Source of the DNA: a virus
Taxonomy: Duplodnaviria; Caudoviricetes
Length of the DNA: 44,448 nt
Direction: 5' to 3' (one strand)
Virus record (IMG/VR): IMGVR_UViG_3300038673_000329
Coordinates: 1 to 44,448 of that record
Shown: positions 966 to 44,448 of the stretch, piece by piece
How the letters are laid out: every line of letters starts with the position of its first letter
Numbering within the stretch: the stretch's first letter is position 1
Notes under the pieces: model-generated
Database searches by the model: none
Told to the model about the DNA's origin: nothing
What the model saw: only the letters and a program-made list of their open reading frames with translations
Position numbers and translations under genes: made by a program

Positions 966-2036
966 ATGAAGATCGGTGTATACGCCATCTCTAAGAACGA
1001 AAGTCAGTTCGCGGAACGATGGTACAATTCTATGCGCGAAGCAGACGAAATAGTAGTGCTTGATACAGGCTCAACTGACTCGACAGTCGAGATACTACGT
1101 TCATGCGGCGCCGTGGTGCATGAAAAAGTTATTAGCCCCTGGCGCTTTGACGTCGCGCGGAATGCAAGTCTCGATCTTGTCAGTGATGATGTCGACATTT
1201 GCGTATGCACCGATCTTGATGAATACTTTGAGCCGGGCTGGAGAGCCCGACTTGAACGGGCTTGGAGTTCCACGACCACGCGCGCGCGCTATCGTTACAC
1301 GTGGAATTTTAATTTAGATGGCTCTGAAGGCGTTGTGTATTTGATGGACAAGGCGCATGCTCGAAGGGGTTATAAATGGATTCATCCCGTCCATGAAGTC
1401 CTGCAGTGCTCTTCGGAGGAGCACACCGTAACAGTGCCCGGGATACAATTGAATCACACAGCGGTTCCTAAAAATTCGCGCGTCGGCTATCTACCACTTC
1501 TTATCCAAGCTGTTCAAGAAGCGCCCGACAACGACCGCAATACACATTATCTAGGACGGGAATACATGTTCCAAGGCCAATATGAAGATGCTATTATCAC
1601 ACTCAAGAAACATCTATCACTTAAGGCGGCAACGTGGGATGCTGAGCGTGCAGCATCGATGCGGTTTATAGCACGATGTTACAAAGCGTTGAGTGAATAT
1701 GATCAGTGCGAGTTGTGGTATAATCGTGCCATTGCCGAAGCTCCACAATATCGCGAAGCATGGGTTGAAATGGAACAGTTCATGTATGATCAAAAAAGGT
1801 GGCGCGAATGCATATTTTATGGTCTGCAAGCAATAAACATTAAGAACAGGGAATTATCATATATTACTGAACCCTTTGCATGGGGCGGATTGCCGCATGA
1901 TTTGTTGAGCATCGCGTTATGGCAAATGGGGCGAAGTGCGGAAGCTATATGCGCCGCGCGGGTTGCCTTAACGCACAATCCAGATGATCAACGTATACAA
2001 AGAAATCTTGTACTTATGAAGGGGGATACACAATGA
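966..2036 (+). CDS. Family 2 glycosyltransferase with C-terminal TPR repeats
   Basis: [22 protein letters not shown], DxD (DLDE) and HPVHE GT-A motifs, followed by TPR-like helices; GGAGG RBS. Confidence 0.9.
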
Positions 2037-5042: not shown

Positions 5043-5966
5043 ATGAAACATATGGGCGCACTAATTAGTCCGGTTGATGATCGCGACTATTCGGTCAGAG
5101 TCCAACCGGATATGGCTGCACCGTCCACGTGGGTGTCGCCGCGTATACCCAATATAGGCGATCAAAAAGTAAATAACTGTGTAAATTGGGCATTGTCATA
5201 TGCCCAAGAAATTGTAACTGGACGGGTGTTCTCCAAAGGCTATATTTATGGCGAGCGCCTTGAAACCGATTATCAGGGTGAGGGTATGTATCCGCATCAA
5301 GCGGCGGCTGCTGTTGTCCGGTGTGGTAATGTATTGTTGCCGGATTGGAATTATGAGCATGAAGTGAAATCGGCTCAGCGTAAAGTATGGGACAAAGCTG
5401 ATGTACTTCGTCCTAAAGCCGGCAAGAACAAAGCCGTGCAGTACGCGCGCTTGCATAACATGCAAGAAGTTATGGCCGCGCGCATGGCCGGTTTGGGTGT
5501 CACGATTAGCGTGCGCGTCGAAAGCTATAAGACCAATGCACGCGGCGTATTTAAGTGCACATCAGCCTCTAAAGGCAATCACGCTATGTGTATCTTGGAT
5601 TGGTCTGATAAGTTCCCAGAACCATGGAGAGTGCTTAATTCCTGGGGCACTAAGTGGGGTCTCAAGGGATTGTGTTATATCAGTGATGAGGATATATGGC
5701 GCAACAATAACGTATATGCCTATGAATTTATCGAGAATAAGGAATCGCCCGTACGTCGCACACTCAGGAGCGGTATGAAGGGTGACGACGTTAAGCTTCT
5801 TCAGACCAAGTTAATTGCACTTGGAATCGACCTCGGTCCGTGGGGCGCTGACGGTTCCTTTGGTAATGCGACCAAGACCGCCGTAAAGCTCTTTCAGGTA
5901 CGTAACGGTCTCAAGATGGACGGCATTGTCGGACCGGCTACATGGAGGGTGTTAGACAATGTTTGA
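5043..5966 (+). CDS. Papain-like (C1) cysteine peptidase with C-terminal peptidoglycan-binding domain; putative endolysin
   Basis: GDQxxxxC, NHAM and LNSWGTKWGxxG catalytic motifs; LRSGMKGDDVKLLQ...DGIVGPATW PG_binding_1-type repeat. Confidence 0.85.
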   Translation: MKHMGALISPVDDRDYSVRVQPDMAAPSTWVSPRIPNIGDQKVNNCVNWALSYAQEIVTGRVFSKGYIYGERLETDYQGEGMYPHQAAAAVVRCGNVLLPDWNYEHEVKSAQRKVWDKADVLRPKAGKNKAVQYARLHNMQEVMAARMAGLGVTISVRVESYKTNARGVFKCTSASKGNHAMCILDWSDKFPEPWRVLNSWGTKWGLKGLCYISDEDIWRNNNVYAYEFIENKESPVRRTLRSGMKGDDVKLLQTKLIALGIDLGPWGADGSFGNATKTAVKLFQVRNGLKMDGIVGPATWRVLDNV

Positions 5967-6675
5967 GTATGTTGAAAATTTAAACCTCGATTGGCATGAG
6001 GGCAGAGTAAAACGTACCGTAACCGACCACATACAAATACATCACACTGTGGGCGATTACGATACGCCGGAAAGATGGACTGCGCTTCACAACAAGCGCG
6101 TCGCATCATCTGACTATCGTGGCATTGAATATTCGTTCGGCATTAACAGCGAAGGTCGTGTATTCGAGGGACGCGGGCTTGAATATAAGCATGGCGGTGT
6201 AATGAACAGCTTGACCAACAATGCCAATGATCGTTCTGTATCTGTTGTATTTATTGGCGACATGCGTAAGCCGGAGCTGCCGTCCGATAAGCAAATGCAG
6301 GCGGGTGTTATACTTGTTCGCGATTTACTTGCGTATTATAAACTGGCTATAACAGATGTGTATGGCCACAATGAGATCAAACCATACCGCCCCGGTGACA
6401 GTCGATACACACTATGCCCTGTAATCGATATGGATGACTTCCGACTACGCCTGGATGCGGGCATTACATTTCCCTCCGGATACTACTATGGGGGTGCGTC
6501 TTATGTAAATCTGCGGACGGCGCCCGATACATTAGGTACCATCATCGGCCGGGTAAATAAAAATGATGACGTCATCGTACTCGATATTGATGGCGGCTGG
6601 GCGGAAGTCATCAAACACAACGACGTACCCATGAAACGCGGTTACTGCATCTCAACATGGTTAAAAAGGCGGTAA
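5959..6675 (+). CDS. N-acetylmuramoyl-L-alanine amidase (Amidase_2) with SH3b domain; endolysin
   Basis: IQIHHT, EGRG, GHNE...CP zinc motifs; VNLRTAP...GWAEV SH3b. Confidence 0.9.
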   Translation: MFEYVENLNLDWHEGRVKRTVTDHIQIHHTVGDYDTPERWTALHNKRVASSDYRGIEYSFGINSEGRVFEGRGLEYKHGGVMNSLTNNANDRSVSVVFIGDMRKPELPSDKQMQAGVILVRDLLAYYKLAITDVYGHNEIKPYRPGDSRYTLCPVIDMDDFRLRLDAGITFPSGYYYGGASYVNLRTAPDTLGTIIGRVNKNDDVIVLDIDGGWAEVIKHNDVPMKRGYCISTWLKRR

Positions 6676-7145: not shown

Positions 7146-7562
7146 TTATTCTTTACGTTCTTTCCGCTCATAGAATCGCAAGTGTAGATATGCGTCTTTG
7201 GTATGTTCAGTGCACGTACATCTACTCTTCAAGTCCGCCCAACGGGCGTCTAAGCCGCCACTATACTTTTTGTCGCTGGGCGCTTGCTCGATGTATGGTA
7301 TCGATTCTCTCACGCACAAGTAACGTATTACACCTATTACTTCACACGGATAGAACGTATTCCATGACAAGGATTGTGCCATGCCTGGATATAGATTGAA
7401 TCGCTCAAATATAACAAGGTCTGGTGCATATTGAATAAATAGCATCGCGACGTCCAAATGATTACGCACAGCCGTTCCGCCGATTACTTCACCTGTATCA
7501 TTGCGATACACCCATCCCGTATTTTCACCCGGGTCAAATACTAATACACGCTGCATCGTCAT
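7146..7562 (-). CDS. RuvC-like Holliday junction resolvase
   Basis: VLVFDPGENTGW, VIFE and HTKDA RNase-H-fold acidic motifs. Confidence 0.75.
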   Translation of the reverse strand: MTMQRVLVFDPGENTGWVYRNDTGEVIGGTAVRNHLDVAMLFIQYAPDLVIFERFNLYPGMAQSLSWNTFYPCEVIGVIRYLCVRESIPYIEQAPSDKKYSGGLDARWADLKSRCTCTEHTKDAYLHLRFYERKERKE

Positions 7563-8904
7563 CCTCCACTCCTAATACTTTTTTGATGTCTTCTGATTTC
7601 TGTAAGTTAATGTTACCAACGTACTTATCGATGCTGCCAACACATTGCAGAACATATATGTCCACAATATCATTCTGTCCTATGCGATACAGCCTGTCTT
7701 CAGCTTGTTCGTTAAGAGCTGGTGACCAGTCGCGATCTAGAAATACGCCGATATGACACACTGACTGTAATCCGTCTACACCTGTTCCCAACGCTCCTAT
7801 CGTGCCCGCGAGTACTTGAACAGGATTGGAAGTAAACTGGGCCAGCGCAGCCTGGCGACTTGTCATATCCAAATCACCCGTATAAGCTACGCACGATATT
7901 CCTCTCTGGTTCAAGTACTGCTTTAGCAGCTGCACGGCGTTAGCAAATCGGCTAAACACGACCAGCTTAATGTCCGGATTGTCGTCGCACATTTCTGCGA
8001 TCCACGAGAACTTGATGCTCTCTGGACATTCGAAGATCTGTGGCTCGGTGGTGATTTGTTGTAGTCGAATCATCTTGGACATACCATTGAGTATCGTACA
8101 GTTATCGGGCAGTTCGTCAAGCAGTAGCTTCTTGGCGTTATCATACAGCGTTTGCTGTTTGGAGCCCATCTTCAGAGTGACTGCGTTCACGCGCTTGATT
8201 GTTGGCAATCGCAGGTCCGGATTGTTAATGGTGTACGGCGCCAGCAAGTCAACCAGTGCCTTCTGCTTTTCCAGATCGTGCGTCAAGCCTTTCACTGAGC
8301 GGCCAAACGGGCCGAGCTCGGAGTGGCAGTACTCGTTCACGAAGCCCCAGTAGCTATTGCCGGCTTCCTTAACACCCAGCCAATGTAGTATGCTGAACAA
8401 ATCATCTGGCTTGTTCAAGATCGGCGTTCCGGACAAACCAACGCGACGCTTAGCTGGGAGCTTCTCGAAGGCACGTGTCACCTTGGCATCCCGATTCTTT
8501 ATGCGGTGTATCTCGTCACATATGATAACGTCCCACTGAAACTGTAGATACTGCTGAAGTCGCGGACCGGGATGAAAGAACTTATACTTGCCCTTCTTCT
8601 CGAATGTGCCGTTAGCTAGATGCTCATGATTCACAATTACAATCATCTCAGGCGCCCGGGCATCAATTCTCTTAGGCAGGACAATACACTCCCTGCCTAG
8701 CCATTCGCCGATAGCCGCCTGCCACTGGTACATGATCGTTTTGGGACACGATATCAGTACACGCTTGGCCTGCCACATATCAATCATGGCAATGCCCTCT
8801 ACGGTTTTACCGTACCCCATCCGGTTGGCGTTTAGCACACTGCTCAAGTTTCGCGCAAACTCGACGTCGCGCTTTTGATAGTCATACAATTTCCTCTTTA
8901 GCAC
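7534..8904 (-). CDS. SNF2-family helicase
   Basis: YQ motif, MGYGKT, DEIH, SGTP, QAEDRLYRIGQ. Confidence 0.92.
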   Translation of the reverse strand: MLKRKLYDYQKRDVEFARNLSSVLNANRMGYGKTVEGIAMIDMWQAKRVLISCPKTIMYQWQAAIGEWLGRECIVLPKRIDARAPEMIVIVNHEHLANGTFEKKGKYKFFHPGPRLQQYLQFQWDVIICDEIHRIKNRDAKVTRAFEKLPAKRRVGLSGTPILNKPDDLFSILHWLGVKEAGNSYWGFVNEYCHSELGPFGRSVKGLTHDLEKQKALVDLLAPYTINNPDLRLPTIKRVNAVTLKMGSKQQTLYDNAKKLLLDELPDNCTILNGMSKMIRLQQITTEPQIFECPESIKFSWIAEMCDDNPDIKLVVFSRFANAVQLLKQYLNQRGISCVAYTGDLDMTSRQAALAQFTSNPVQVLAGTIGALGTGVDGLQSVCHIGVFLDRDWSPALNEQAEDRLYRIGQNDIVDIYVLQCVGSIDKYVGNINLQKSEDIKKVLGVEDDDAACISI

Positions 8905-10984
8905 GTTTCCAAGCCTCCCAACTCTCTAACTTACCCCACGAATATCCCACTTCTGCATCTGCCTTAAATGGCACATTGCAGTTCTCGAGTTGCTTTTCGG
9001 GCTGTTCCTTCATAATCCGAGTACCGACCTCGACTATCCAGTTAACAATATCTGGCCTGTCTGTACATTCGAATATAATTGAGTCATGCACGTTGTTGAT
9101 AATCTTGATGTCGTCTCGATACGGCCCACTCATTATTTCATCATGAATGTCCATAAGGCTTATCAGCGTCAAATCTGTTGCGATACTGGATACGGGGAAG
9201 TTGATGGATTCATTTTGTATGTTGTTGATGTTCGAGGCGGTGATAACGAAATGCCGCATACGGCCGAATGCCGATATACATTCTTGTCCGCGTTGTGGCT
9301 TGAGTCGCGTTTCCTGAATCCACTTCTTGACCTGCGGCATTGGTGCGTACCACTTTGCAATGATACCATTTGCCTCGCTGATTGAGCATCCAAATTCGTC
9401 CATCAAGGATGCCGCACCGCGCCCATATGCTATACCGAAATTAATAGTCTTTGCCTGGACGCGTTGCTCCTTTGTAAAGTTCGGTCCAAACATGTCCGTC
9501 GCGACAGCATCATGCAAATCACGGCCTTCGACGAATACGTTTATCAACCAAGGATCTTGTGACAGATAAGCCAGTGCACGAAGTTCTGCCTGCGAGTAAT
9601 CCAACTGAACAAGTATCTTACCTGGTGCGGCCTTAAAGATGTTCTTGATCTTCTTATCGCGTGGGATGTTCTGCATGTTCGGCTCAGAGCAGCTAAGTCG
9701 GCCAGTCTCAGTTCCGTGCAGGTTAAACGTAGCATGAACACGCCCGTCGCTACACATCGCATCTCTAATGCCGAACACATACGTATCGAGTTGTTTGTGA
9801 AGCTTACGAGACTGCATGAGCGCCTTGATAAAAGCCTGTTCCCTATATGACTTGCCCAGCGCTTCAAGCGCATCGGCGTCTGTGCATGTGACATCCTCAC
9901 CAGTTACCTTACTCAGTAACCACTTTAATTGCGCCGGTGACTTCAAGTTAAATCGGTTCGGCATCGACTTCGCCCCCGTATCGCGAACATACTGCACAGC
10001 ATTCCAATATGCATTGGCGGCCGCTTCTACGATATCATCAGCCTCATCGCACGCCTCCTGCAACTCAATGTGTATCGCATTTAAGTGTTCCTGGTCTACC
10101 ATAAATCCGTTCGACTCAAGATGCGTGTATACATTGGATGCACGTATCAAATTGCCGTATGCGCGCATGGCGCTAGGACGTGCAATCTTACGGAAAAGAT
10201 GCAGAAGCATAAACGTCGCGGTACAGTCCATTGCGAGGTATGGGAGCATTATCTCGAGCGGGATGTCATCGTATCGAAAGTCGGCTATCTTTATCTTGAG
10301 TGCACGTGCCCGCTTCTTCTTGTACTCGTCCAGCTCATCGTCCCACTGCGGTGCTTGAAGATAAAGGGGAGCCAATACCTTCAAGCCATGGGTTCCCTTC
10401 TTTTCGTTGATGCCGACATAATGTAACAGCATAGTATCTTCATCAACACGTGCATGCACGCCGCACACCCATCGTAGCCGACCAATGTCGAACTTACCAT
10501 TGTGCCACAGGAACTGCATTTGCGAAACCGGGGTCTTGAACAGCTTGTTTAACGCGGCGCAAACCGGAGGCGTGAAGATTCCAATGATTCCAACCTCTCT
10601 AGTATCGGCCGTCTTGATGCCTAAGAGTAGCATGTTCTGATTGTCCCACCCCGTGTGGCTACATTCAATATCACAAGCTACCACTCCGCGATAACTTCCC
10701 AGCCTGTTCAAGTACGCGATAGCGTCCGCCTCTGTGCGGTATAATTTGTACGGGATATTCCAAAAGTCTTTTCCACTCGCTACAATCGATAAATCGACAT
10801 GTGCGAATGCCATAATGGACTCACAGTATCGATCGACCTCACGGGGATAACTGCGCAGATATTTTTCAGGGGGAACGTATAAAACGTTCCCCACCGATCT
10901 ATACCAGCGCTCGCGGTTCATCGTATCCTTGACACTACGGTCGTCTGGGAAGTCTGGACACACGGCCTTGATAATGTTATTCAT
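8882..10984 (-). CDS. polA: Family A DNA polymerase with 3'-5' exonuclease domain
   Basis: DIE, HNGKFD, YxxxD exonuclease motifs; TGRLS, DYSQAELR, KTINFGIAYG, VHDS polymerase motifs. Confidence 0.95.
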   Translation of the reverse strand: MNNIIKAVCPDFPDDRSVKDTMNRERWYRSVGNVLYVPPEKYLRSYPREVDRYCESIMAFAHVDLSIVASGKDFWNIPYKLYRTEADAIAYLNRLGSYRGVVACDIECSHTGWDNQNMLLLGIKTADTREVGIIGIFTPPVCAALNKLFKTPVSQMQFLWHNGKFDIGRLRWVCGVHARVDEDTMLLHYVGINEKKGTHGLKVLAPLYLQAPQWDDELDEYKKKRARALKIKIADFRYDDIPLEIMLPYLAMDCTATFMLLHLFRKIARPSAMRAYGNLIRASNVYTHLESNGFMVDQEHLNAIHIELQEACDEADDIVEAAANAYWNAVQYVRDTGAKSMPNRFNLKSPAQLKWLLSKVTGEDVTCTDADALEALGKSYREQAFIKALMQSRKLHKQLDTYVFGIRDAMCSDGRVHATFNLHGTETGRLSCSEPNMQNIPRDKKIKNIFKAAPGKILVQLDYSQAELRALAYLSQDPWLINVFVEGRDLHDAVATDMFGPNFTKEQRVQAKTINFGIAYGRGAASLMDEFGCSISEANGIIAKWYAPMPQVKKWIQETRLKPQRGQECISAFGRMRHFVITASNINNIQNESINFPVSSIATDLTLISLMDIHDEIMSGPYRDDIKIINNVHDSIIFECTDRPDIVNWIVEVGTRIMKEQPEKQLENCNVPFKADAEVGYSWGKLESWEAWKRAKEEIV

Positions 10985-11733
10985 GACCAGTAAGCCTCCT
11001 TGAATCGGCAGTTGATGAATGTTTGCCAGTCGACACTGTCGTTTACCAAATCAACTGTAAACCCGTCCGGGCGTGTACCGGTTATAGGACTGATGCTATG
11101 CTTTGCAAAGAACGTCGCTAAACAGGTATCGACAGACCGGATGTCCTCAGGATACTGATATTGCACCAGCTCATTATAATTGTACCATAATCCGAGAAGA
11201 TGTATCTGTGGCGGCGTGTCTACATTCCAGCACATTTCGCGCCACAAATACTCAAAGTACGGCCGGCCTTTCGGATGCAGCTTAGCGCATACCTTAGGAA
11301 TGCCGATAACATCTAGCCCTAATCCTAGCATGCGTCTAAAACATTCTGCAAACTCTCGTGGGTCATTACCTTGGCACACACCCATGTACTTGAACGGCCT
11401 CTCGAGGTTCAGATCCTGCTCGATCTTCTTACACTCTCTAAGTGCTTTCTCGGTACTGGCAAGTGTTGCGGGTCCGTTGCGAAAAACATCAGGCAGTATA
11501 ATCTCGTCCGCATTAATGGCCAGTGCGGCATTAACCAAACGAGTAGTAGACACAGCGTCACCGAGTTCAATCAGGGAATTGTCCAAAATCTTATACCCTT
11601 TGAAGTAACGAGCGAAGTTGCTGTAGCCGACAGAGTGCTCAACTAGGTGAGTAAGAAACATCCCCATCGGCGCATCTTTGATGTAGCCTAGGTTCGCAAT
11701 GGGCACGATATCGATGACTTGCATCATGGCCAC
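10981..11733 (-). CDS. Short TGT/DpdA-like TIM-barrel base-exchange protein
   Basis: Ordered motifs ILDNS, IILPD, MGVCQG, VIGIP, IHLLG, RSVDT parallel the TGT/DpdA DSG, catalytic D, GxxQG, G, HxLG and FD motifs; adjacent to QueC and YhhQ. Confidence 0.7.
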   Translation of the reverse strand: MAMMQVIDIVPIANLGYIKDAPMGMFLTHLVEHSVGYSNFARYFKGYKILDNSLIELGDAVSTTRLVNAALAINADEIILPDVFRNGPATLASTEKALRECKKIEQDLNLERPFKYMGVCQGNDPREFAECFRRMLGLGLDVIGIPKVCAKLHPKGRPYFEYLWREMCWNVDTPPQIHLLGLWYNYNELVQYQYPEDIRSVDTCLATFFAKHSISPITGTRPDGFTVDLVNDSVDWQTFINCRFKEAYWS

Positions 11734-12113
11734 TCCCTCCTTTGCCAGGGCATCTTCAAGTCACGTTCCGGCTCATCAGGCTGATATGTTTCATAGTGCA
11801 TCAGCGCCGCTATGTTCCATATAGCCGCAGCCAGATGGTCCTCAGTGCGATCGCCGGCAAGCCAACGGTAGAGATGCCTAATGGTGGAGCTAAAACACCG
11901 CGAATCTTTGAGGCCCTTTTCCCAGTTTCGGTTCGCATACTTGTTTGCACCCCGTTCGTAGTGCAGCGCCAGTCGATGAAGCATGATGGGCGGAATCAAT
12001 TCATAGCAGCCTTTCTCTTCGGCAGGTTCACGCATGCCGCCAGTACGTTCCAGTTCACGCTTGCCGCCATCAGGAAGCGGTGTTGCCTTGGCATCATCTC
12101 TTTTGATAATCAT
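11724..12113 (-). CDS. dATP/dGTP diphosphohydrolase-domain protein (DUF5664-like)
   Basis: KGxYELIP, GANKYANRNWEKG, RH, EDHLAAAIWN. Confidence 0.85.
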   Translation of the reverse strand: MIIKRDDAKATPLPDGGKRELERTGGMREPAEEKGCYELIPPIMLHRLALHYERGANKYANRNWEKGLKDSRCFSSTIRHLYRWLAGDRTEDHLAAAIWNIAALMHYETYQPDEPERDLKMPWQRREWP

Positions 12114-12463
12114 TCTATGGGTACCTCCAGTTCATAGAATTTGTCACCATACTGCTCAGGATAACGTTCACGAAGTTTTACGTAATTCATGCGAATCACG
12201 TCGTTCAGTGATATACCGAGCAGATGGCACAGATGGGCCAAGTACCAAATCACATCGCCGACTTCCTCAACAAACCGCTCAGTTGGGACGTCCTTACCAT
12301 GAAGCAACTTTTTTACGAGGTCCGCTACCTCACCCGATTCACCACATATGCCCAATGCGGCGTTGAACAGCCTTTTCTCCCGGTTGGCGGATGGGTTTGT
12401 ATACCCATCCGCTACGAACTCCTGATAGTTAGTTAAAGAGACTATACTCTTCTTTACTGTCAT
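12110..12463 (-). CDS. MazG-like nucleoside triphosphate pyrophosphohydrolase
   Basis: LGICGESGEVADLVKK, EEVGDVIWY, NxxKLRERYP; start placed at the ATG downstream of GGAGG. Confidence 0.9.
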   Translation of the reverse strand: MTVKKSIVSLTNYQEFVADGYTNPSANREKRLFNAALGICGESGEVADLVKKLLHGKDVPTERFVEEVGDVIWYLAHLCHLLGISLNDVIRMNYVKLRERYPEQYGDKFYELEVPIE

Positions 12464-13097
12464 AAACGTCCAAACCCTCCTCTTTCTTAACTTTCTTGAC
12501 AACGGCACTGGTCAGCGGCAGAACTACTATTTCATACACTGTCTTCATAATAACCTGAGTGAGTATCATGGGGACCATGGCGCCCGCCGGAAGAACGCCA
12601 ATGAACGCTATGGTAATGAATATACACGAGTCGACTAGCTCGCCGACTACTGTTGAGACGATGGCGCGCACGCCGAAGTACTTACCGCCCATCATGACCT
12701 TCATTTTACTGATGACCGCGGCGTTTAGATATGAACCACATACATACGCAACCAAGCTAGCACCAAGTAATCTCGGCGTGCTTCCCAACGCTGTCTTGAA
12801 CGCTTCAGCATCCGCAAACCACACAGGCGCCGCAATGTGTATCGCCGCCTGGAAGTATAACACCATCAACAGATTCATACCAAAGCCGAGCCACATAATG
12901 TACCGCGCCGTCTTGAACCCGTACACCTCAGCGATGACATCGCTCATGATGTACGCGATCGGGAACACGAGCACGCCGGCGGTAATCTCCCACGGACCGA
13001 TCACAATCATCCGCGAGGCGATTACATTGGATATGAGCAAACAGGTGATGAACAGAACGCCAAAGAACATGAGTAACGGAGTAATCGTTTTCTTCAT
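12429..13097 (-). CDS. yhhQ: Queuosine precursor transporter (YhhQ/VUT family)
   Basis: Multi-TM protein with SNVIASR, FPIAYIMSDVIAEVYG, STVVGELVDSCIFITIAF, KTVYE. Confidence 0.92.
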   Translation of the reverse strand: MKKTITPLLMFFGVLFITCLLISNVIASRMIVIGPWEITAGVLVFPIAYIMSDVIAEVYGFKTARYIMWLGFGMNLLMVLYFQAAIHIAAPVWFADAEAFKTALGSTPRLLGASLVAYVCGSYLNAAVISKMKVMMGGKYFGVRAIVSTVVGELVDSCIFITIAFIGVLPAGAMVPMILTQVIMKTVYEIVVLPLTSAVVKKVKKEEGLDVYDSKEEYSLFN

Positions 13098-13113
13098 AGG
13101 TGTGTTTCCTTTC

Positions 13114-13782
13114 TTACCGAGGCTCAAGGCCATTTTTTATGAACGCATTTCTGCGGTCAATGCACGTTCCACACGCGCCGCAGGGCGCACTGTTGCCCTC
13201 ATAGCAGCTCCAGGTATGGCTAAAGTCTACACCGCACCGCACGCCGATTTTTACGATATCCGCTTTGGACATCCTAATGAAGGGCGCATATAACGTCACT
13301 AAACCGGATGTGCCATGCCGTATGGCCTGATTCATAGCCTCAGCGAAGGATATCGAGCAATCGGGATAAGCGCTTCCGGCTGCGTCATCGGCATGCGCAG
13401 CATAGGCTACCTGATTACAACCTATTTGAAGCGCGACCGCTGTTGCGTATGAAAGCAGTAGACCATTGCGGAACGGTACATATGTGCTCACGGGGCGCCC
13501 ATTAGCCTGCTTAAAATACGCTTCGTGCACAATGGGCGTTTTACTGTCCATTAGGAGAGAGCTAACATCCGGATTGAACGTGAACACAGTGCCCAGATCA
13601 ACCTCCATCAACGGCATGTTCATCTTGCTGGCCTGCCACTTTGCGCAATCAACCTCTTTGGTATGCTTTTGGCCGTAGTACGCGAACAATCCCACATTAG
13701 CTGTTCTTGGGCCGTCCATCATGTGCGCTAGCACAGTACTATCCAACCCACCACTCATAAGTATTAGTGTTCTGTCCTGCAT
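13114..13782 (-). CDS. queC: 7-cyano-7-deazaguanine synthase
   Basis: SGGLDS PP-loop, YGQKH, YVPFRN, YPDC, WSCYx6CxxCxxC zinc site. Confidence 0.93.
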   Translation of the reverse strand: MQDRTLILMSGGLDSTVLAHMMDGPRTANVGLFAYYGQKHTKEVDCAKWQASKMNMPLMEVDLGTVFTFNPDVSSLLMDSKTPIVHEAYFKQANGRPVSTYVPFRNGLLLSYATAVALQIGCNQVAYAAHADDAAGSAYPDCSISFAEAMNQAIRHGTSGLVTLYAPFIRMSKADIVKIGVRCGVDFSHTWSCYEGNSAPCGACGTCIDRRNAFIKNGLEPR

Positions 13783-14021
13783 CGCAAAATATTCCTCCGT
13801 TCAATATACTCTAGACACTCTTCTGTTGCCCTATAGGCACCGGATGCCAAACCTTTAACAGCACCCGCCAACAGCAAATCCTTATAGATATCATTCATGA
13901 GCCAACGATCTACGTCAATGACTTCACGCGTCAGTTTGAGGCTGACAACCCCTGCTTGAAAAATGGCTTCCAGCATCGGATATTTGTTCACGTACTTATC
14001 CACGATGCGTGTATCAAGCAT
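13764..14021 (-). CDS. Small winged-helix-like protein
   Basis: Resembles the C-terminus of the upstream primase-helicase; likely start is the ATG at 14021 after GGGGTG. Confidence 0.65.
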   Translation of the reverse strand: MLDTRIVDKYVNKYPMLEAIFQAGVVSLKLTREVIDVDRWLMNDIYKDLLLAGAVKGLASGAYRATEECLEYIERRNILRCRTEH

Positions 14022-14022
14022 A

Positions 14023-16740
14023 TCATTCACCCCCGATCTGTTTCGTGATTTCAATTAGCATCTTATCAGGTGAATAAGCACCCGAGTTGCCCAACCTGAC
14101 CAAGCCACGACGTAGTAGCTCTGACAGTAACTTAGAAGCCTCGGTCTTATCGATGCCGAGTATCTCCTGCATCTGGCCGCCTCTGAACTGGTTGGAGGAC
14201 AGTAGCACGCGCAGCGCGGGGTACATACTAATCTGTGCTTTGATGAACGTTACGTTCTGAACACGCTCCCGCTGTACACGCTTACTCTCCTTGATGAACC
14301 CGGCGTAGTCCAATGTCGGCTTGCCGAATGTTGTACGCAGGAATGTGATGGCATCATTGACTTCTTTATCCGTCACCTCAACGCAGCGCTCAACAATCCG
14401 GCCCTTTAGTATTGCACATGCACATGATATACGTAAAATCTTCTCGTGTACGGCAACACCTACGACCAACGGCCCACCGCCAAACTCCTCTTCAAGTTCG
14501 CGCGCGGCTTGCTTAACAGCTTCAACCGCATCGCGCTCCAGAATGATATCATCCACAGGTACTGACCATGCATACGCTACAAGATCCATCATCTTGGATA
14601 TGATATCATCCATGTTGACGGGCTCTTCAACGTCTTGAAACGAATTAACATCAACATCATCGCGAGCCGCCGCAATGAGTACATCATAGCGTGCTTGGTC
14701 CTCAGCTATGGGTATGAATTCCTGAAACGCACCATAACCCTTCCAGTAGAACTCATCAATGTTACGCCCACTTCTCGGGTTGGATAACCAGATAATTCGT
14801 GTCCGCGCTCGGGCCTCCCCCTTAGCGATTTTGTTTATTGTGACCGCACCACTAGATCGGGTAGCCGACAGTTCCTTGATGTCGTCTACACTCAAACCAG
14901 AGGCTTCATCAACCAGCAGCAAACCCTTATCGTTAAGCGGTATTGCACCCCACGTGATAACCCACGAGTCACCAAATCTTTGTACGCCGCCAATGACGCC
15001 CGTACGCTTAGCATTCTCTCCATTGATATACGAGCCCATGCCAAGTGTACGCACAAACCGCTGAGCCATCTGCGACTTACCTGTTCGCGTATCGCCGATG
15101 ACCATTGTATCCAACCAACCCTTAATAATTCCTGAGCGCCATTTAATCTCTGTCACCGACAAGTAAGTGAGCAGTAATGCACCGAACAAATCTAGGCGTC
15201 CCTCTATACCAAGGCGCGCACGCCATAGATTATAATGCTCTTCAAGTACCGCCCAAATGTCCTCCCCAGCGTGTTTATTTGCAATGGCCTGGAAGAACAA
15301 TATCGTCTCTTTCGGTATCGACAGTCCGGCAACACTTGCCTGTGGTGTCGCGGCCTTACGTATCACATAATAGTTCTGCTGTGATCGCGGATCTGACACG
15401 CGGCAGGCTTCGAAGTCATACTTTACCGTTGGAAGCAGGCGCCCTTCATCGTACAGGAACAAACCGTAGCGATGATCAAACGATGCTTCCTCGACACCAT
15501 CCATGAACGATGCCGACTCCTGGAATAGAATTTTCTGAACATTTGTGAATGCGACTGGCTCGGCAATGATTGACTTACAACCGAACAACTTCTGTAAGTA
15601 CGTGTCCTGTGTAGTATCAGGCGACTCTACAAACAGAACCATCTGCCTCGGCTCCACATCAAGTTCAATTGGGACACGTGTAGATCCAATGTTACATCGC
15701 TTTTCACACTTCGAGTTCTTACACAGCAGCTTCAACTTAGTCGGAATAGTGTACGTTTTAGGATCGGCGCCCGTTATGCACATGTTGTTCAGTTGAATCC
15801 AGCTGTTCAAGTTCTCGACGAACTCACTCTTCGTGAGCGTCGTAGTACCAACCACAGCGGTATTCGCTGCGTCGGGACCGGCCATAGCGGACTCTGTCCA
15901 GGGTTCGAAATCCAAGCTATGGTACTTGATCCAGAAATCCGTGAAGTCTTTTTCTGGAAGCCGGACTCTTGTAATGTCCTTTGTGTACGGTCGCAAACCT
16001 GTAATGTATCGCTGTGCATTCTTATCGCCGGCCGCATCATTGTCTGTCATTATCACAACTTTGCGCCCAGCAAACAGATCAAGCTCAGCGAACGGAAGCG
16101 TCGTGCCTCCCGTTCCCGTCATTGCATTCAATCCGCATGACAACGCTACCAAGCAATCTTTTTCACCCTCTACGATGTAAATAGGCTCGCTGGGGTCCGC
16201 ATCAAGAAGAACGCTGTACGGATATAACCGACATTCATTAAGACCCTTCATGCCTATGACCTTCGCATTGTTACTCTCCACAATACGCTTACTCGGTGGC
16301 AAGTACTTGCGAACGTTAACAAGCATCCCGGTTCTTGAACGGATTGGTATAGTCACACGTATGTCATCCCAGCCGAGCTGATATTTTTCAATGATCTCGT
16401 CGGTTATGCCGAAACCATGTAGCTCATCAAGTGCGGCAGGTCTGCGCTGTAGTGCAGCCATACATTTCTCAATGTACTCCTCTGATGGAAACATCCACGC
16501 GCCCGTCTTATGGTATCGATGACACGCGTTTACTGCAATACCTCTTGGCACATCATAAAACTCGGTAATGAACTCTACGTGATGCCCGCCCTTACCACAT
16601 CCATGACAAAACCAGGCATCCGTCTCAACATTTACCGTGAAGGATGCGTTGGTGTCGTTATGCATCGGACATATTCCGTAGATCTGATTTCCCGATGTTT
16701 TACTATCATCGAAATCGATGAATTGATCGTAGAAACCCAA
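14023..16740 (-). CDS. DnaG-type primase fused to MCM-like AAA+ helicase
   Basis: CPMH...CHGC zinc finger, TOPRIM (VEGEKD, DND), Cys cluster, GDTRTGKSQ Walker A, LLVDEAS Walker B, SNP sensor, ARYD arginine finger; TTG start with GAGGGGG RBS. Confidence 0.85.
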   Translation of the reverse strand: MGFYDQFIDFDDSKTSGNQIYGICPMHNDTNASFTVNVETDAWFCHGCGKGGHHVEFITEFYDVPRGIAVNACHRYHKTGAWMFPSEEYIEKCMAALQRRPAALDELHGFGITDEIIEKYQLGWDDIRVTIPIRSRTGMLVNVRKYLPPSKRIVESNNAKVIGMKGLNECRLYPYSVLLDADPSEPIYIVEGEKDCLVALSCGLNAMTGTGGTTLPFAELDLFAGRKVVIMTDNDAAGDKNAQRYITGLRPYTKDITRVRLPEKDFTDFWIKYHSLDFEPWTESAMAGPDAANTAVVGTTTLTKSEFVENLNSWIQLNNMCITGADPKTYTIPTKLKLLCKNSKCEKRCNIGSTRVPIELDVEPRQMVLFVESPDTTQDTYLQKLFGCKSIIAEPVAFTNVQKILFQESASFMDGVEEASFDHRYGLFLYDEGRLLPTVKYDFEACRVSDPRSQQNYYVIRKAATPQASVAGLSIPKETILFFQAIANKHAGEDIWAVLEEHYNLWRARLGIEGRLDLFGALLLTYLSVTEIKWRSGIIKGWLDTMVIGDTRTGKSQMAQRFVRTLGMGSYINGENAKRTGVIGGVQRFGDSWVITWGAIPLNDKGLLLVDEASGLSVDDIKELSATRSSGAVTINKIAKGEARARTRIIWLSNPRSGRNIDEFYWKGYGAFQEFIPIAEDQARYDVLIAAARDDVDVNSFQDVEEPVNMDDIISKMMDLVAYAWSVPVDDIILERDAVEAVKQAARELEEEFGGGPLVVGVAVHEKILRISCACAILKGRIVERCVEVTDKEVNDAITFLRTTFGKPTLDYAGFIKESKRVQRERVQNVTFIKAQISMYPALRVLLSSNQFRGGQMQEILGIDKTEASKLLSELLRRGLVRLGNSGAYSPDKMLIEITKQIGGE

Positions 16741-22105: not shown

Positions 22106-22702
22106 TTATGCTTCCGCGTCGGTCTGCTCGGCAGTAGCAGTAGCAGTAGCAGCAAGGCGCGCACGCACCTCAGCCTCGGCCTTGGCCACACCGGACGGAG
22201 GTACCATCTTCTGGTTCAAGGTCCAGTTGCTCATGCTGGTGAGCATCAGACTGTCTTCCGGCTGGAGCACAACACTGGCATCGTTCACAAATACGGCCTT
22301 GTAGATAACATCGGACTTCTTGATGATGACCGTATCGCCCACATTGATTTCGAACCTACGCTTGGGGATGCTCTTGCCACCGCCAACATCGATCATGTCC
22401 TTGCTGCTGCCACCGGCCGAAGGACCTCTCCGGCGATCACGGGTGGACAGATCGGCATCAATTTCGAGTGCCGCGTTGATCACATCTTCAAGAGTCATGA
22501 AACCCTTGGGGTTGTCCTCACCAATTCGCTTCTCGACGAAACGTGTAATCGCACCCCAGTTATAAACCTTGGCGTCATACACTTCGCCGGCAACAGGCTG
22601 TTTAGCCACACTGTAGATTCGGGTTTGCTGTACGTCCAGCGCTTCAGCAATAGCGCGAAGACTGGGCTGCGCAACTCCCATACGTTCGATGGTGTTCAAC
22701 AT
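22106..22702 (-). CDS. Paralogous family member 1 (HTH-like N-terminus, beta-barrel-like C-terminus)
   Basis: SLRAIAEAL...KQPVAGEVYD...NWGA; TTG start with AAGGAGG RBS; own promoter and terminator. Confidence 0.75.
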   Translation of the reverse strand: MLNTIERMGVAQPSLRAIAEALDVQQTRIYSVAKQPVAGEVYDAKVYNWGAITRFVEKRIGEDNPKGFMTLEDVINAALEIDADLSTRDRRRGPSAGGSSKDMIDVGGGKSIPKRRFEINVGDTVIIKKSDVIYKAVFVNDASVVLQPEDSLMLTSMSNWTLNQKMVPPSGVAKAEAEVRARLAATATATAEQTDAEA

Positions 22703-23547: not shown

Positions 23548-24171
23548 TTATGCACCCTCTCCTTCAGTATCAACTGCTCCCTCCGGGTCCGCATGACCAA
23601 CCACGGTACCGCCACTGTGCTTAAATGTCGCATTAGACATTACACGCGGCTTAGACGTACCATCCGCCATGATGACCAAGTGTGTCGGCGTGGCAATATG
23701 CACACGATAAGGTGGGAACTTTGTAACTGAGCCGTCGGCATTCTCAACAGGACGAAGCGTCACGATATCGTTAACCTTAACATCCAATAGTACCTCGGGC
23801 GCATCAGTCCCTGTAGACAACAGCTTATCAACCTTAAGATCCACGAGCGCATCGATACCGTTCTTACGGACAAGAACCTGAACCATCGCACCGAAGTTCA
23901 CATTATCCGGATCGTACATCTGTCCGGACACTGGAGCTTTGCTCGCCTTCAACAACGCTGTGTAGTTAGCACCCGTCGCGAACGCGAGCTGCTTGATCGA
24001 GGCGTTCTCATCCCCGAAGTACTCCTGCAGGACTGCTGTCGCCTCAGCGATTGCCTGATCCCGGTATTCCTGCTCAGCAACCTGCTCGGGATCTTCTTGG
24101 CGCGGTTCGGGATCTACCGGAGCCTGTTCCAATTGAGTGCCCTGTGCCATCCTCTTTTTGTCTTTTGCCAT
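23548..24171 (-). CDS. Paralogous family member 2
   Basis: SIKQLAFAT...KAPVSGQMYDPDNVNFGA...KPRVMSNATFKHSG; AAGGAG RBS. Confidence 0.75.
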   Translation of the reverse strand: MAKDKKRMAQGTQLEQAPVDPEPRQEDPEQVAEQEYRDQAIAEATAVLQEYFGDENASIKQLAFATGANYTALLKASKAPVSGQMYDPDNVNFGAMVQVLVRKNGIDALVDLKVDKLLSTGTDAPEVLLDVKVNDIVTLRPVENADGSVTKFPPYRVHIATPTHLVIMADGTSKPRVMSNATFKHSGGTVVGHADPEGAVDTEGEGA

Positions 24172-28771: not shown

Positions 28772-29206
28772 TTATACCTCCCTCGGTCCTTGGTGTTCGA
28801 AGGTATCCAGGTTCATGACTCGGGGCTTCGTCTTGCCGATCTCCATGAAGACCAGGTGATCTGCGGTGGCCATCAGGATCTCGAACTGTCCGGGGAAGTT
28901 ACGGAACTCGACTGTCTGTCCTACCTGCCAGCTGACGTTCTTCGCGCGGGGCGGCTTCTTACCGGCTGCCAGCTCGTCGAAGTTCGGAAGCTCCAGGTCC
29001 GGTCCGTGCTTCCGGATCAGTGCGTCTGCGACTGCGCTGTAGTTGACGCTATCCGGGTCGTACGGTACTCCGGGTACCGGCTTGCGGCTCTCGCGGAGGA
29101 GGACCTGGTAGGTCGCATCGGTGGCGAGTGCCAGCTGGCGGAGGCTCACTTCGGGGTGCGTCTCGAAGCCGGTCTGGAGGAGGGCAGCGATCTCATTGCG
29201 CTTCAT
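28772..29206 (-). CDS. Paralogous family member 3
   Basis: SLRQLALAT...RKPVPGVPYDPDSVNYSA...KPRVMNLDTFEHQG; AAAGGA RBS before MKRNEIAALL. Confidence 0.75.
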   Translation of the reverse strand: MKRNEIAALLQTGFETHPEVSLRQLALATDATYQVLLRESRKPVPGVPYDPDSVNYSAVADALIRKHGPDLELPNFDELAAGKKPPRAKNVSWQVGQTVEFRNFPGQFEILMATADHLVFMEIGKTKPRVMNLDTFEHQGPREV

Positions 29207-29478
29207 AGTGGTGTCCTTTCTGAGCTCTAGGCTCTGTGCCACACTTGGCAGTGGCCTGCCGATTTATCGTTCGCTCTGCGAGCGTAGCGATCGCTGTGTT
29301 TGTAGCTATTCAGTTGTCAAGGTCCGCCGGTGCCGGGGCTGGGCCCCCGCCCTGGGGTTGTACAGGGCGCTCGCGCTGCTGCTATCCTCGCGGCGTTCCG
29401 ATTCTTTCTCAGCTACGTAAGTAGTACGGATTATCTAACTCGCTCGGAGCCGGCAGCGCTGTTCATGCCGGGTTCTCG

Positions 29479-43627: not shown

Positions 43628-44448
43628 ATGTATAATGCTAGCGAGCAATTCCATAGTGCGGTCTTCCAAGGTTCGCCGAGAGAGCGAATCCTGTTCAAGT
43701 TCGCCGATGGAACGATCTTTACGAACGAAGATATATCCGTCCGTACTGGCGTTACCATTGCTGAGGCGGTAAATAATGAAGAAGAACTCACAATCGGCTC
43801 ATGTCCCGCCTCAACACTTGATACGACCATTATCAATGATCATGGACTCCTGAACAACTATGCATATGGCGAGTGCGAAGTATTCCTAGGTGTGCGTATT
43901 GCATCATCAAGCATTCCACAAACACCGGACGGGGGCCCCCAGGCAGTACTGCGCTACGGTGCGGGAAACGAGGTCGTATTCAGAGGACACGCCACGATGC
44001 CCTACCTCACAATAGGCACCACGCCCACTACAGTACAGCCTCCATTCGGCGTACACGCTATTTTAATTGTGGGCGCCGACGTATACTGCATAAGTGCGGC
44101 TGGTGATGTATGGCATGCAACATGGGCTGACGGCTCTACCTGGAACAGCCTCGCCGCAAACACTTGGAGCGATTTAGCTGCAGAAACGTGGGACGATATA
44201 CAAGGTACATTAACCGAAGTCGGACTTGTAACAATCAGCGACTTCATGGCAAACAAGTTTATCGGCTGGGCGCGCAAGAAACGTGGCATGTGGTACAACG
44301 GCAACATGCTATACGAATTTTCACCAGAGGGCATTGCCGACACGTATGAATATGTACCGCTCGGTGTATTTAACATCAAGCGCCCCACGCGCACGCGTAT
44401 AAGCTTGGTTAACATCGATGCTGAAGATCGCATGACAAAGTTCGACAT
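43628..44448 (+). CDS. Tail tip / baseplate hub protein, 3' end outside window (not in ORF track)
   Basis: GGAGG RBS and ATG at 43628 (MYNASEQFHSAV...LTIGSCPASTL...VPLGVFNI...AEDRMTKFD), open to the window end. Confidence 0.8.
   Translation, partial: MYNASEQFHSAVFQGSPRERILFKFADGTIFTNEDISVRTGVTIAEAVNNEEELTIGSCPASTLDTTIINDHGLLNNYAYGECEVFLGVRIASSSIPQTPDGGPQAVLRYGAGNEVVFRGHATMPYLTIGTTPTTVQPPFGVHAILIVGADVYCISAAGDVWHATWADGSTWNSLAANTWSDLAAETWDDIQGTLTEVGLVTISDFMANKFIGWARKKRGMWYNGNMLYEFSPEGIADTYEYVPLGVFNIKRPTRTRISLVNIDAEDRMTKFD

Follow-up and report, generated by a model that had tools for sequence, protein, structure and literature searches.

Gene content of the cassette

The window, by which we mean the whole stretch of DNA analysed here, is the entire IMG/VR record IMGVR_UViG_3300038673_000329, a 44,448-bp contig of a tailed phage. 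Its minus strand carries the gene cassette queC-yhhQ-mazG-DUF5664-dpdA3-polA, which likely armours the phage DNA against restriction with scavenged 7-deazaguanine. The neighbours abut or overlap, and where there is a gap within the cassette it does not exceed 16 bp. The first gene, queC (13114..13782), matches PF06508 at 169 bits and TIGR00364 at 143 bits, the latter under the cut-off of 150, and its PP-loop and zinc-cysteine motifs are intact. It is followed by yhhQ (12429..13097; start chosen by its ribosome-binding site), a member of the queuosine-precursor transporter family (COG1738) that matches PF02592 at 160 bits and TIGR00697 at 106.5 bits against a curated cut-off of 50.95. Next are mazG (12110..12463; PF03819, E 7e-9), for a MazG-type all-alpha nucleoside triphosphate pyrophosphohydrolase, and a DUF5664 gene (11724..12113; PF18909, dGTP_diPhyd_N, E 1.5e-19). 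The last two genes are dpdA3 (10981..11733), for a minimal TGT-fold guanine transglycosylase of 250 aa recognized by homology, predicted fold and conserved residues, and polA (8882..10984), for a family A DNA polymerase with a 3'-5' exonuclease (PF00476, PF01612), whose start overlaps the dpdA3 stop. This contiguous order, which a reading of the sequence alone had described, is borne out by the coordinates, by the Pfam and NCBIfam matches and by recurrence in a strain of about 94% identity from an independent study, where the whole cluster lies on one contig with the order unchanged and no insertion.

A minimal transglycosylase of the DpdA3 subfamily

Judged by homology and predicted structure, the 250-aa open reading frame (ORF) is DpdA3, the subfamily defined in Cui 2023 (PMC10516641). 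The protein is assigned to no Pfam or NCBIfam family; it has 385 homologues in the protein collection, and its matches in cultured phages are seven records, from six Bacillus phages and Weizmannia phage Youna2. It is 36% identical (E 9e-21) to AYJ76173.1 of Bacillus phage BSP7, which is entered as DpdA3 in supplement DS1 of that study (PMC10516641). A profile of 66 sequences aligns by hhalign with the founding phiST protein CGPG_00065 (probability 98.2, E 5.5e-14, 195 columns), and the family profile matches 8/8 cultured DpdA3 and 0/7 DpdA1/2-type proteins. A profile of six DpdA1-type proteins has no match in the window, and PF23859 (DpdA) does not match the ORF. The AlphaFold model is a TIM barrel (pLDDT 94, pTM 0.91) for which Foldseek returns TGT or DpdA throughout among the matches listed; in a structure comparison (VIA) the first four places go to archaeal TGT, DpdA, bacterial TGT and Cap10. 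Sequence searches of the PDB with the DpdA3 and DUF5664 proteins gave no matches. The sequence-only reading thus had the fold of its "short TGT-fold protein" right and missed its identity with a published subfamily. That identity supports its proposal of a 7-deazaguanine DNA-modification cassette, and we hold it very probable that this cassette modifies the phage DNA in that way. The cassette is not a new system: the same slot holds the full de novo pathway in the cultured Bacillus phage BSP7 and Weizmannia phage Youna2, so the window carries a variant of the known DpdA3 system.

The aspartates D51, D82 and D202 are invariant in 103/103 sequences and are equivalent, by motif order rather than by structural superposition, to D95, D130 and D256 of DpdA; R157 is conserved in 102/103. 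The nucleophile is followed by 48 residues in the window, by 48-62 in nine DpdA3 and by 73-192 in seven DpdA1/2-type proteins. At this place, Salmonella DpdA has a 128-residue insertion (Ins8) that builds a surface for binding double-stranded DNA (PMC10164549). DpdA3 is without most of the DNA-binding insertion, as would suit a small substrate; this is no proof, because phage DpdA1 proteins are shortened too. The CxCxxC zinc motif is absent from the window DpdA3. Net charge was rejected as a discriminator, with 81/88 DpdA3 negative but 4/7 DpdA1/2-type proteins acidic too. Among GTDB genomes we found neither DpdA3 nor a close relative of this YhhQ. The DpdA3 tree referred to below is a quick version with long-branch warnings.

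One DpdA3 cluster (L017:7001-8119 and its three near-copies L039, L040 and L042) joins DpdA3 and a nucleoside 2-deoxyribosyltransferase domain (PF05014) in a single ORF; yhhQ lies upstream, and queC is visible in L017 and L039. DmtZ, a member of the deoxyribosyltransferase family, makes dZMP from dAMP and the free base in Z phages (PMC12884076). A single-sequence model of the fusion was unusable (pLDDT 42).

Precursor supply in related cassettes

Alignments of DpdA3, primase and PolA were used as queries to collect loci L003-L197. When DpdA3 was clustered at 90% identity and a related primase was required, 30 cassettes remained between primase and PolA; one further locus of the lineage, L095, has dpdA3 outside this slot. 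Local profiles built from the loci served to call families, and representatives were confirmed against Pfam. Since the 30 cassettes are related to one another, they do not count as independent events. YhhQ forms the supply part in 17 of them (8 with QueC), QueC-QueD-QueE-FolE in three, and a DpdN-like formyltransferase without supply genes in nine; one has none. YhhQ and QueD+FolE are found together in 0/30, although more distant phages do combine YhhQ with de novo genes (L016, L045, MS1). The exchange is also seen between near-identical phages: L084 has queC-queD-queE-folE where L085 and L086 have queC-yhhQ, with a primase dN of 0.003-0.009. In L082 a remnant of QueE adjoins yhhQ. These counts agree with the earlier suggestion of salvage instead of de novo synthesis.

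FolE, QueD, DUF3310, DpdN and DpdA1 gave no match when profiles from related phages were run over six frames of the whole contig; DpdL and kinase profiles gave no significant match, and QueE none better than E 0.026. The absence of folE, queD and queE noted from the sequence thus holds for the contig. For queF it holds in part, since QueF had no match among the Pfam-scanned ORFs but no search was made with QueF's own profile. The contig is open, without a terminal repeat; its start lies immediately ahead of a collagen-repeat fibre gene and its end within a tail-module ORF, and the contig of a related strain extends 4,063 bp beyond the window end. As both ends belong to the tail module, the unread gap of a few kb falls there too. 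FolE is also absent from two relatives rated 100% complete, G002 (with YhhQ) and G003 (with the formyltransferase); in this check the positive control G005 matched (1/5 records). From the gene content we conclude that YhhQ likely stands in for de novo precursor synthesis in the window cassette.

QueC of the YhhQ loci keeps its motifs and is under purifying selection (dN/dS 0.06-0.17 in four measurable pairs; the window QueC is too divergent from these pairs for a ratio). At least three changes of supply type are forced on the QueC tree.

The formyltransferase directly follows dpdA3 in L049, the L053-L068 group, L074, L087, L090 and L092, and the DpdA3 of these cassettes groups with those of immuto_2-6A and CP220 (support 99, quick tree). 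The product of cassettes with the formyltransferase only would be fdPreQ1 from host preQ1. DpdL homologues with an LxxxHRH motif lie at L050:11683-12162 and L095:41-418 (E 2.5e-13 and 6.7e-15 to phiST DpdL). A small ORF in the queC-yhhQ interval (L011:5376-5714, L013:5449-5772; 107-112 aa) looked QueF-like by eye and was rejected as such, being unmatched by two phage QueF proteins and by Pfam; it has a "CP" motif and is a candidate for a further tailoring enzyme.

Nucleotide enzymes that travel with dpdA3

Each of the 30 cassettes has a MazG or dUTPase_2 gene (30/30), together with exactly one gene of a second set: DUF3310 in 21 cassettes, DUF5664 in 8 and a P-loop kinase in one. The DUF5664 gene of the window thus fills a slot that in relatives belongs to DUF3310 or a P-loop kinase. 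In two loci MazG is part of a fusion, with DUF3310 in L068 and with DUF5664 in L088. The exchange of DUF3310 and DUF5664 requires at least three events on the quick tree. We detected no homology between DUF3310 and DUF5664, nor of either to MazG, so this interchange is non-homologous. DUF3310 has been linked to the kinase activity of T7 gp1.7 (PMC9339283).

The same genes follow dpdA3 when it moves or is lost. L072 and L073, of the same lineage, have the slot without DpdA3 and without both partners, and DpdA3 is also absent from the remainder of these partial records. L095 has dpdA3 upstream of recombination genes, with DpdL and DUF5664, and queD-queE-folE by polA. In CP220, dpdA3 is located in a region of tail genes, where its neighbours are an HD/P-loop protein on one side and a P-loop kinase-like protein on the other. 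A kinase-like gene is found within three genes of dpdA in 7/8 cultured DpdA3 phages (StAshley is the one without) versus 0/7 DpdA1/2-type phages (Fisher p 0.005 with BSP7 and Youna2 merged). The seven control phages were picked from a QueC search. For MasterPo one upstream gene is visible, a nucleotidase or dCMP deaminase is present farther from dpdA in Pan1 and Va3, and Xanthomonas PhiXhv-15 was dropped as an eighth control because it has no identifiable DpdA. The gene neighbourhoods support the view that the MazG-type and partner genes belong to DpdA3 and follow dpdA3 rather than merely the polymerase, as the sequence-only reading had it when it tied the hydrolases to the TGT-fold gene.

The acidic motifs of MazG are intact (E42, E45, E67 and D70) and invariant in 27/27 aligned relatives. 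The earlier label "dATP/dGTP diphosphohydrolase" for the DUF5664 protein is right as a domain match, but it is the name of the Pfam domain and not the substrate of this copy. With MazG motifs intact and DUF5664 present, a dGTP specificity of either is not readable from sequence.

In more distant phages (L135, L153, L157, L168 and L183-L185), a DUF1599-like gene ("nucleotide modification associated domain 1") lies near dpdA3 and may be a fourth alternative among the partners. The Thoeris inhibitor Tad3 takes the place of the whole cassette in L072 (8565-9047) and L073, and Tad1- and Tad2-like genes come after dpdA3 in L461 (4274-4912).

Polymerase and genome signature

DpdA3 stands beside the phage PolA in 26 of 126 IMG/VR loci of at least 12 kb, versus three with a DpdA1-type gene (L211-L527, PolA-motif scans). 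The window PolA lies far under the NCBIfam cut-offs for DpoZ (99 vs 500 and 44 vs 350 bits). The motif B variant NFGIAYG at first looked like a marker of DpdA3, which 24/30 distant PolA loci had. It was rejected because of the low DpdA3 share in unbiased scans of loci of at least 12 kb (variant A 17/49, V 8/46, I 1/31). A predicted DpdA3-PolA complex scored 0.25 against a mark of 0.32.

Six-mer palindromes that contain G occur in the window at 1.07 times expectation, versus 0.70-0.71 in L072 and L073. Their median is 0.88 in 19 DpdA3-positive versus 0.75 in 80 DpdA3-negative PolA clusters (p 1e-5), a raw comparison across clusters in which host and ancestry are uncontrolled. GATC (0.79) and CATG (0.82) are mild exceptions in the window. 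This relaxed avoidance of G palindromes supports protection of the DNA and is silent on its timing.

Proposed pathway and alternatives

Complete base replacement in other phages usually takes place at the dNTP level. We propose that the window encodes a salvage-fed DpdA3 cassette by which much or all of the G is replaced, with the swap made on free nucleotides before replication; taken as a whole, this account is to us close to an even proposition, while for the nucleotide-level route by itself the balance is somewhat in favour. YhhQ would import a deazaguanine base, most simply 7-carboxy-7-deazaguanine (CDG), which QueC would convert to 7-amido-7-deazaguanine (ADG) or preQ0; if the imported base were preQ0, QueC would be bypassed. 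MazG and/or DUF5664 would turn dGTP into dGMP, which would both drain dGTP and supply the acceptor. The TGT aspartates of DpdA3 would exchange guanine for deazaguanine on a guanine deoxynucleotide. Host kinases would then make the triphosphate (relatives encode their own), the adjacent PolA would incorporate the analogue, and the modified genome would evade restriction enzymes. Because QueC is present and DpdL and DpdN are unmatched, the predicted base is dPreQ0 or dADG. What underlies the account is the identity and order of the genes, the predicted fold, the conservation of the catalytic residues, the gene swaps seen among relatives and the fact that palindromes are not avoided. That such chemistry is feasible on nucleotides follows from the Z phages, where MazZ makes dGMP (PMC8342488) and DmtZ acts as described above.

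The same salvage-fed cassette could also work on DNA, with DpdA3 swapping the base during or after replication, perhaps at the fork, and with MazG and DUF5664 as ordinary enzymes that clear the pool of dUTP and of nucleotides that are damaged or recycled and that are carried along in the replication operon. We regard this DNA-level route as a serious possibility of lower probability, and a number of observations weigh in its favour and against a swap on nucleotides. The authors who defined DpdA3 take all these modifications to be post-replicative (PMC10516641), a proposal with which our plausible but unproven pre-replicative reading is at odds, and every TGT or DpdA with demonstrated activity acts on a polymer in the accounts consulted (PMC10516641, PMC10164549). 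The gene dpdA3 lies at most 800 bp upstream of polA in 41/43 loci selected by PolA motif, a closeness that fits coupling to the fork equally well as a nucleotide route; no PolA motif, among three motif B variants, marks the DpdA3 phages. In about 14 StAshley-like loci the order is queE/folE-dpdA3-polA, with nothing more than small unknown ORFs in between and no recognizable partner nearby; partners may lie elsewhere in the genomes. Outside the lineage, kinase and MazG occur within three genes of dpdA3 in 1/24 loci by Pfam (a sample chosen by PolA motif, with neighbourhoods scanned); local profiles add MazG, DUF3310 or DUF1599-like neighbours in a few more. DpdA3-negative PolA loci have a nucleotide enzyme in the four upstream genes in 4/24 cases, though none of these is MazG, DUF3310 or DUF5664. 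The window itself is without a kinase or DUF3310 match. The nearest PDB relatives of its MazG (YpjD, MazG and dCTP pyrophosphatase) are house-cleaning enzymes, and the sole assayed stand-alone DUF5664 has kcat values of 0.48, 0.22 and 0.053 per second for dATP, dUTP and dGTP (PMC12884076). This tenfold preference of dATP over dGTP is wrong for a phage that replaces G, unless the window DUF5664 differs from the assayed copy; moreover, DUF5664 is also found in phages with canonical genomes (PMC12884076). AT-only palindromes, too, differ slightly between the DpdA3-positive and -negative groups (p 0.03). A DNA-level swap by DpdA3 with unrelated pool cleaners has difficulty, however, with partners that stay beside dpdA3 where it is distant from polA (L095, CP220) and vanish with it (L072, L073). 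Such neighbours are seen in none of the seven DpdA1/2-type phages, a group that includes enzymes shown to modify plasmid DNA. The Ins8 region of DpdA3 is the shortest, and DpdA3 gave no DNA modification in an E. coli assay, in which phiSM DpdA1 failed too (PMC10516641).

The nature of the imported base is a question of supply and is compatible with either timing. The sequence-only reading had a deazaguanine imported and then processed by QueC, a chain with a gap in it, as the known YhhQ cargo, preQ0 and preQ1, is the product of QueC and what lies beyond, not its substrate. CDG is made by FolE, QueD and QueE and consumed by QueC (PMC5372724). YhhQ replaces exactly these three genes while QueC stays under selection, with at least three changes on its tree, and YhhQ also stands beside a homologue of DpdL, predicted to act on CDG as a decarboxylase, in a complete genome without FolE (L050/G002). 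From these gene contexts the swap suggests that YhhQ may import CDG, the substrate of QueC. The alternative, to which we give a slightly less than even chance, is that YhhQ imports preQ0 or preQ1 and that QueC is an optional booster on CDG made by the host, with no salvage of CDG. E. coli YhhQ transports both bases, preQ0 better than preQ1, and QueC is absent from 9/17 YhhQ cassettes, including L048, the closest relative of the window; nothing on CDG transport by YhhQ was found in the literature searched. These points count against CDG import, and the subgroups of the YhhQ family differ in predicted substrate. Between CDG and preQ0 as the imported base we see about even odds. The fuller combination, in which DpdA3 would be the first enzyme of TGT fold with a free deoxynucleotide as its substrate, CDG would be delivered by a re-specialised YhhQ, and interchangeable QueC, DpdL or DpdN would set the final base, is graded as doubtful. 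Finally, the cassette might not modify DNA at all and could boost queuosine in host tRNA, as a 2019 paper proposed for phages then thought free of DpdA (PMC6884629), or handle deazaguanylated proteins like Cap10 of CBASS, one of the best matches by structure (Z 14.0, within about 1 of TGT and DpdA). We consider this very improbable, given the homology to DpdA3 of fully modified phages, the coupling of DpdA3 with DpdN and DpdL homologues in relatives and the relaxed palindrome avoidance. Type IV CBASS systems with Cap9 and Cap10 have a cognate CD-NTase in the operon; there is no nucleotidyltransferase among the Pfam-scanned ORFs of the window, where no defence-library scan was made.

Flanking genes and other features of the contig

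The cassette is part of a longer minus-strand run, in which primase-MCM and a small conserved ORF precede it and genes for an SNF2 helicase and a RuvC-like protein follow polA. The primase (CHC2 zinc finger and Toprim) is fused to an MCM-type helicase domain (14023..16740, minus strand; PF01807, PF13155, PF00493) and forms the upstream border of the slot, at an equal position in relatives. The small ORF (13764..14021, minus strand; start picked by its ribosome-binding site) encodes a conserved protein of about 85 aa with no assigned function and is kept with or without the cassette, also in L072 and L073, which are without DpdA3. The SNF2-family helicase downstream (7534..8904, minus strand; PF00176, PF00271) belongs to the replication module and is not specific to the cassette.

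Elsewhere in the window, a GT2 glycosyltransferase with TPR repeats (966-2036, plus strand) is flanked by two collagen-repeat fibre genes and may glycosylate the virion fibre. Two adjacent lysin-like genes on the plus strand encode a papain-family peptidase with a peptidoglycan-binding domain (5043-5966) and an amidase with SH3 (5959-6675). A Lar-family restriction-alleviation domain (PF14354; 21224-21706, minus strand) marks a second possible anti-restriction gene. Three minus-strand ORFs without a Pfam match (22106-22702, 23548-24171 and 28772-29242) look paralogous by eye, with a common N-terminal helical segment. The window end (44419-44448) is an assembly bubble with two alternative continuations of about 1.83 kb, which suggests a variable end of a tail gene.

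Comparison with known systems

What is new here is the modular cassette with yhhQ in place of queD-queE-folE beside DpdA3. Phage YhhQ homologues as such had been noted before (PMC6884629). Our literature searches, outside which most subscription papers lie, found the Cui paper (PMC10516641) alone on DpdA3 and deazaguanine, and nothing that joins pre-replicative modification, deazaguanine and a transglycosylase; titles and the beginnings of abstracts held nothing on CDG uptake, BSP7 chemistry or nucleotide-level DpdA. The published model for the three phages that replace every guanine is editing of finished DNA by DpdA3, a protein not known to have shown activity in any assay. The gene context names alternative substrates (dGMP or dGTP) and partner enzymes, which are relevant to the failed E. 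coli assay, and BSP7 is cultured on a laboratory host, Bacillus subtilis. If the proposed pathway is true, a TGT fold acting on free nucleotides would open a compact way to DNA in which all guanine is 7-deazaguanine; with the YhhQ swap, phage genome chemistry would depend on precursors traded in the community, and CDG would be indicated as a salvaged intermediate not recognized before.

The closest known counterparts are the clusters of BSP7 and Youna2, whose DpdA3 are 33-36% identical to that of the window. They share its slot and its order of primase, queC, supply genes, partner gene, dpdA3 and polA; they differ in having their own queD, queE and folE and a P-loop kinase-like gene where the window has yhhQ, mazG and DUF5664. 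We found no publication on the DNA chemistry of either phage. Replacement of G is complete in all three analysed DpdA3 phages, by dADG in Campylobacter phage CP220, dDG in Cellulophaga phage phiST and fdPreQ1 in Flavobacterium phage immuto_2-6A (PMC10516641). Citing another study, that paper also reports ADG nucleoside in the cytoplasm of infected cells. These carry a transglycosylase of the same subfamily, with hydrolase- and kinase-like genes near dpdA3 in each, and CP220, which carries dADG, encodes QueC and DpdA3 as the window does. All three encode FolE, QueD and QueE, unlike the window, which also is without DpdL and DpdN matches. In the DS1 sheet, 30 of 31 DpdA3 rows have FolE, QueD and QueE, and SE131 has DpdA3 alone; YhhQ is given for none of the 31, and its column, in the version consulted, is empty throughout (PMC10516641).

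Phages with DpdA1 or DpdA2 (for example Orion, 7-11 and MS1) form a further comparison: YhhQ homologues in phages, and dependence on precursors from the host or from outside, are on record (PMC6884629), and Streptococcus phage MS1 has queC, queD, queE, folE, yhhQ and dpdA together. Their transglycosylases belong to another subfamily, with partial modification and a longer C-terminal region, and the seven phages examined have no kinase or MazG neighbours. A bacterial counterpart is Salmonella Montevideo DpdA (PDB 7UI4), with a TIM-barrel TGT fold (Z 15.1, rmsd 3.5, 225 aligned) and three catalytic aspartates; in contrast to this system, the window is without the 128-residue Ins8, the CxCxxC zinc site and, among its annotated ORFs, DpdB. 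The Z-genome clusters (PurZ, DatZ, MazZ/DUF550, DUF5664, DmtZ, DpoZ) follow the logic that we propose for the window: a MazG-fold dGTPase that yields dGMP (PMC8342488), a DUF5664 pool hydrolase and deoxyribosyl transfer at the monophosphate level (PMC12884076). The window differs from them in the base, in having no PurZ or DatZ among its annotated ORFs and in a PolA under the DpoZ cut-offs. The pre-replicative route is proven for Z, whereas for DpdA3 it is inferred.

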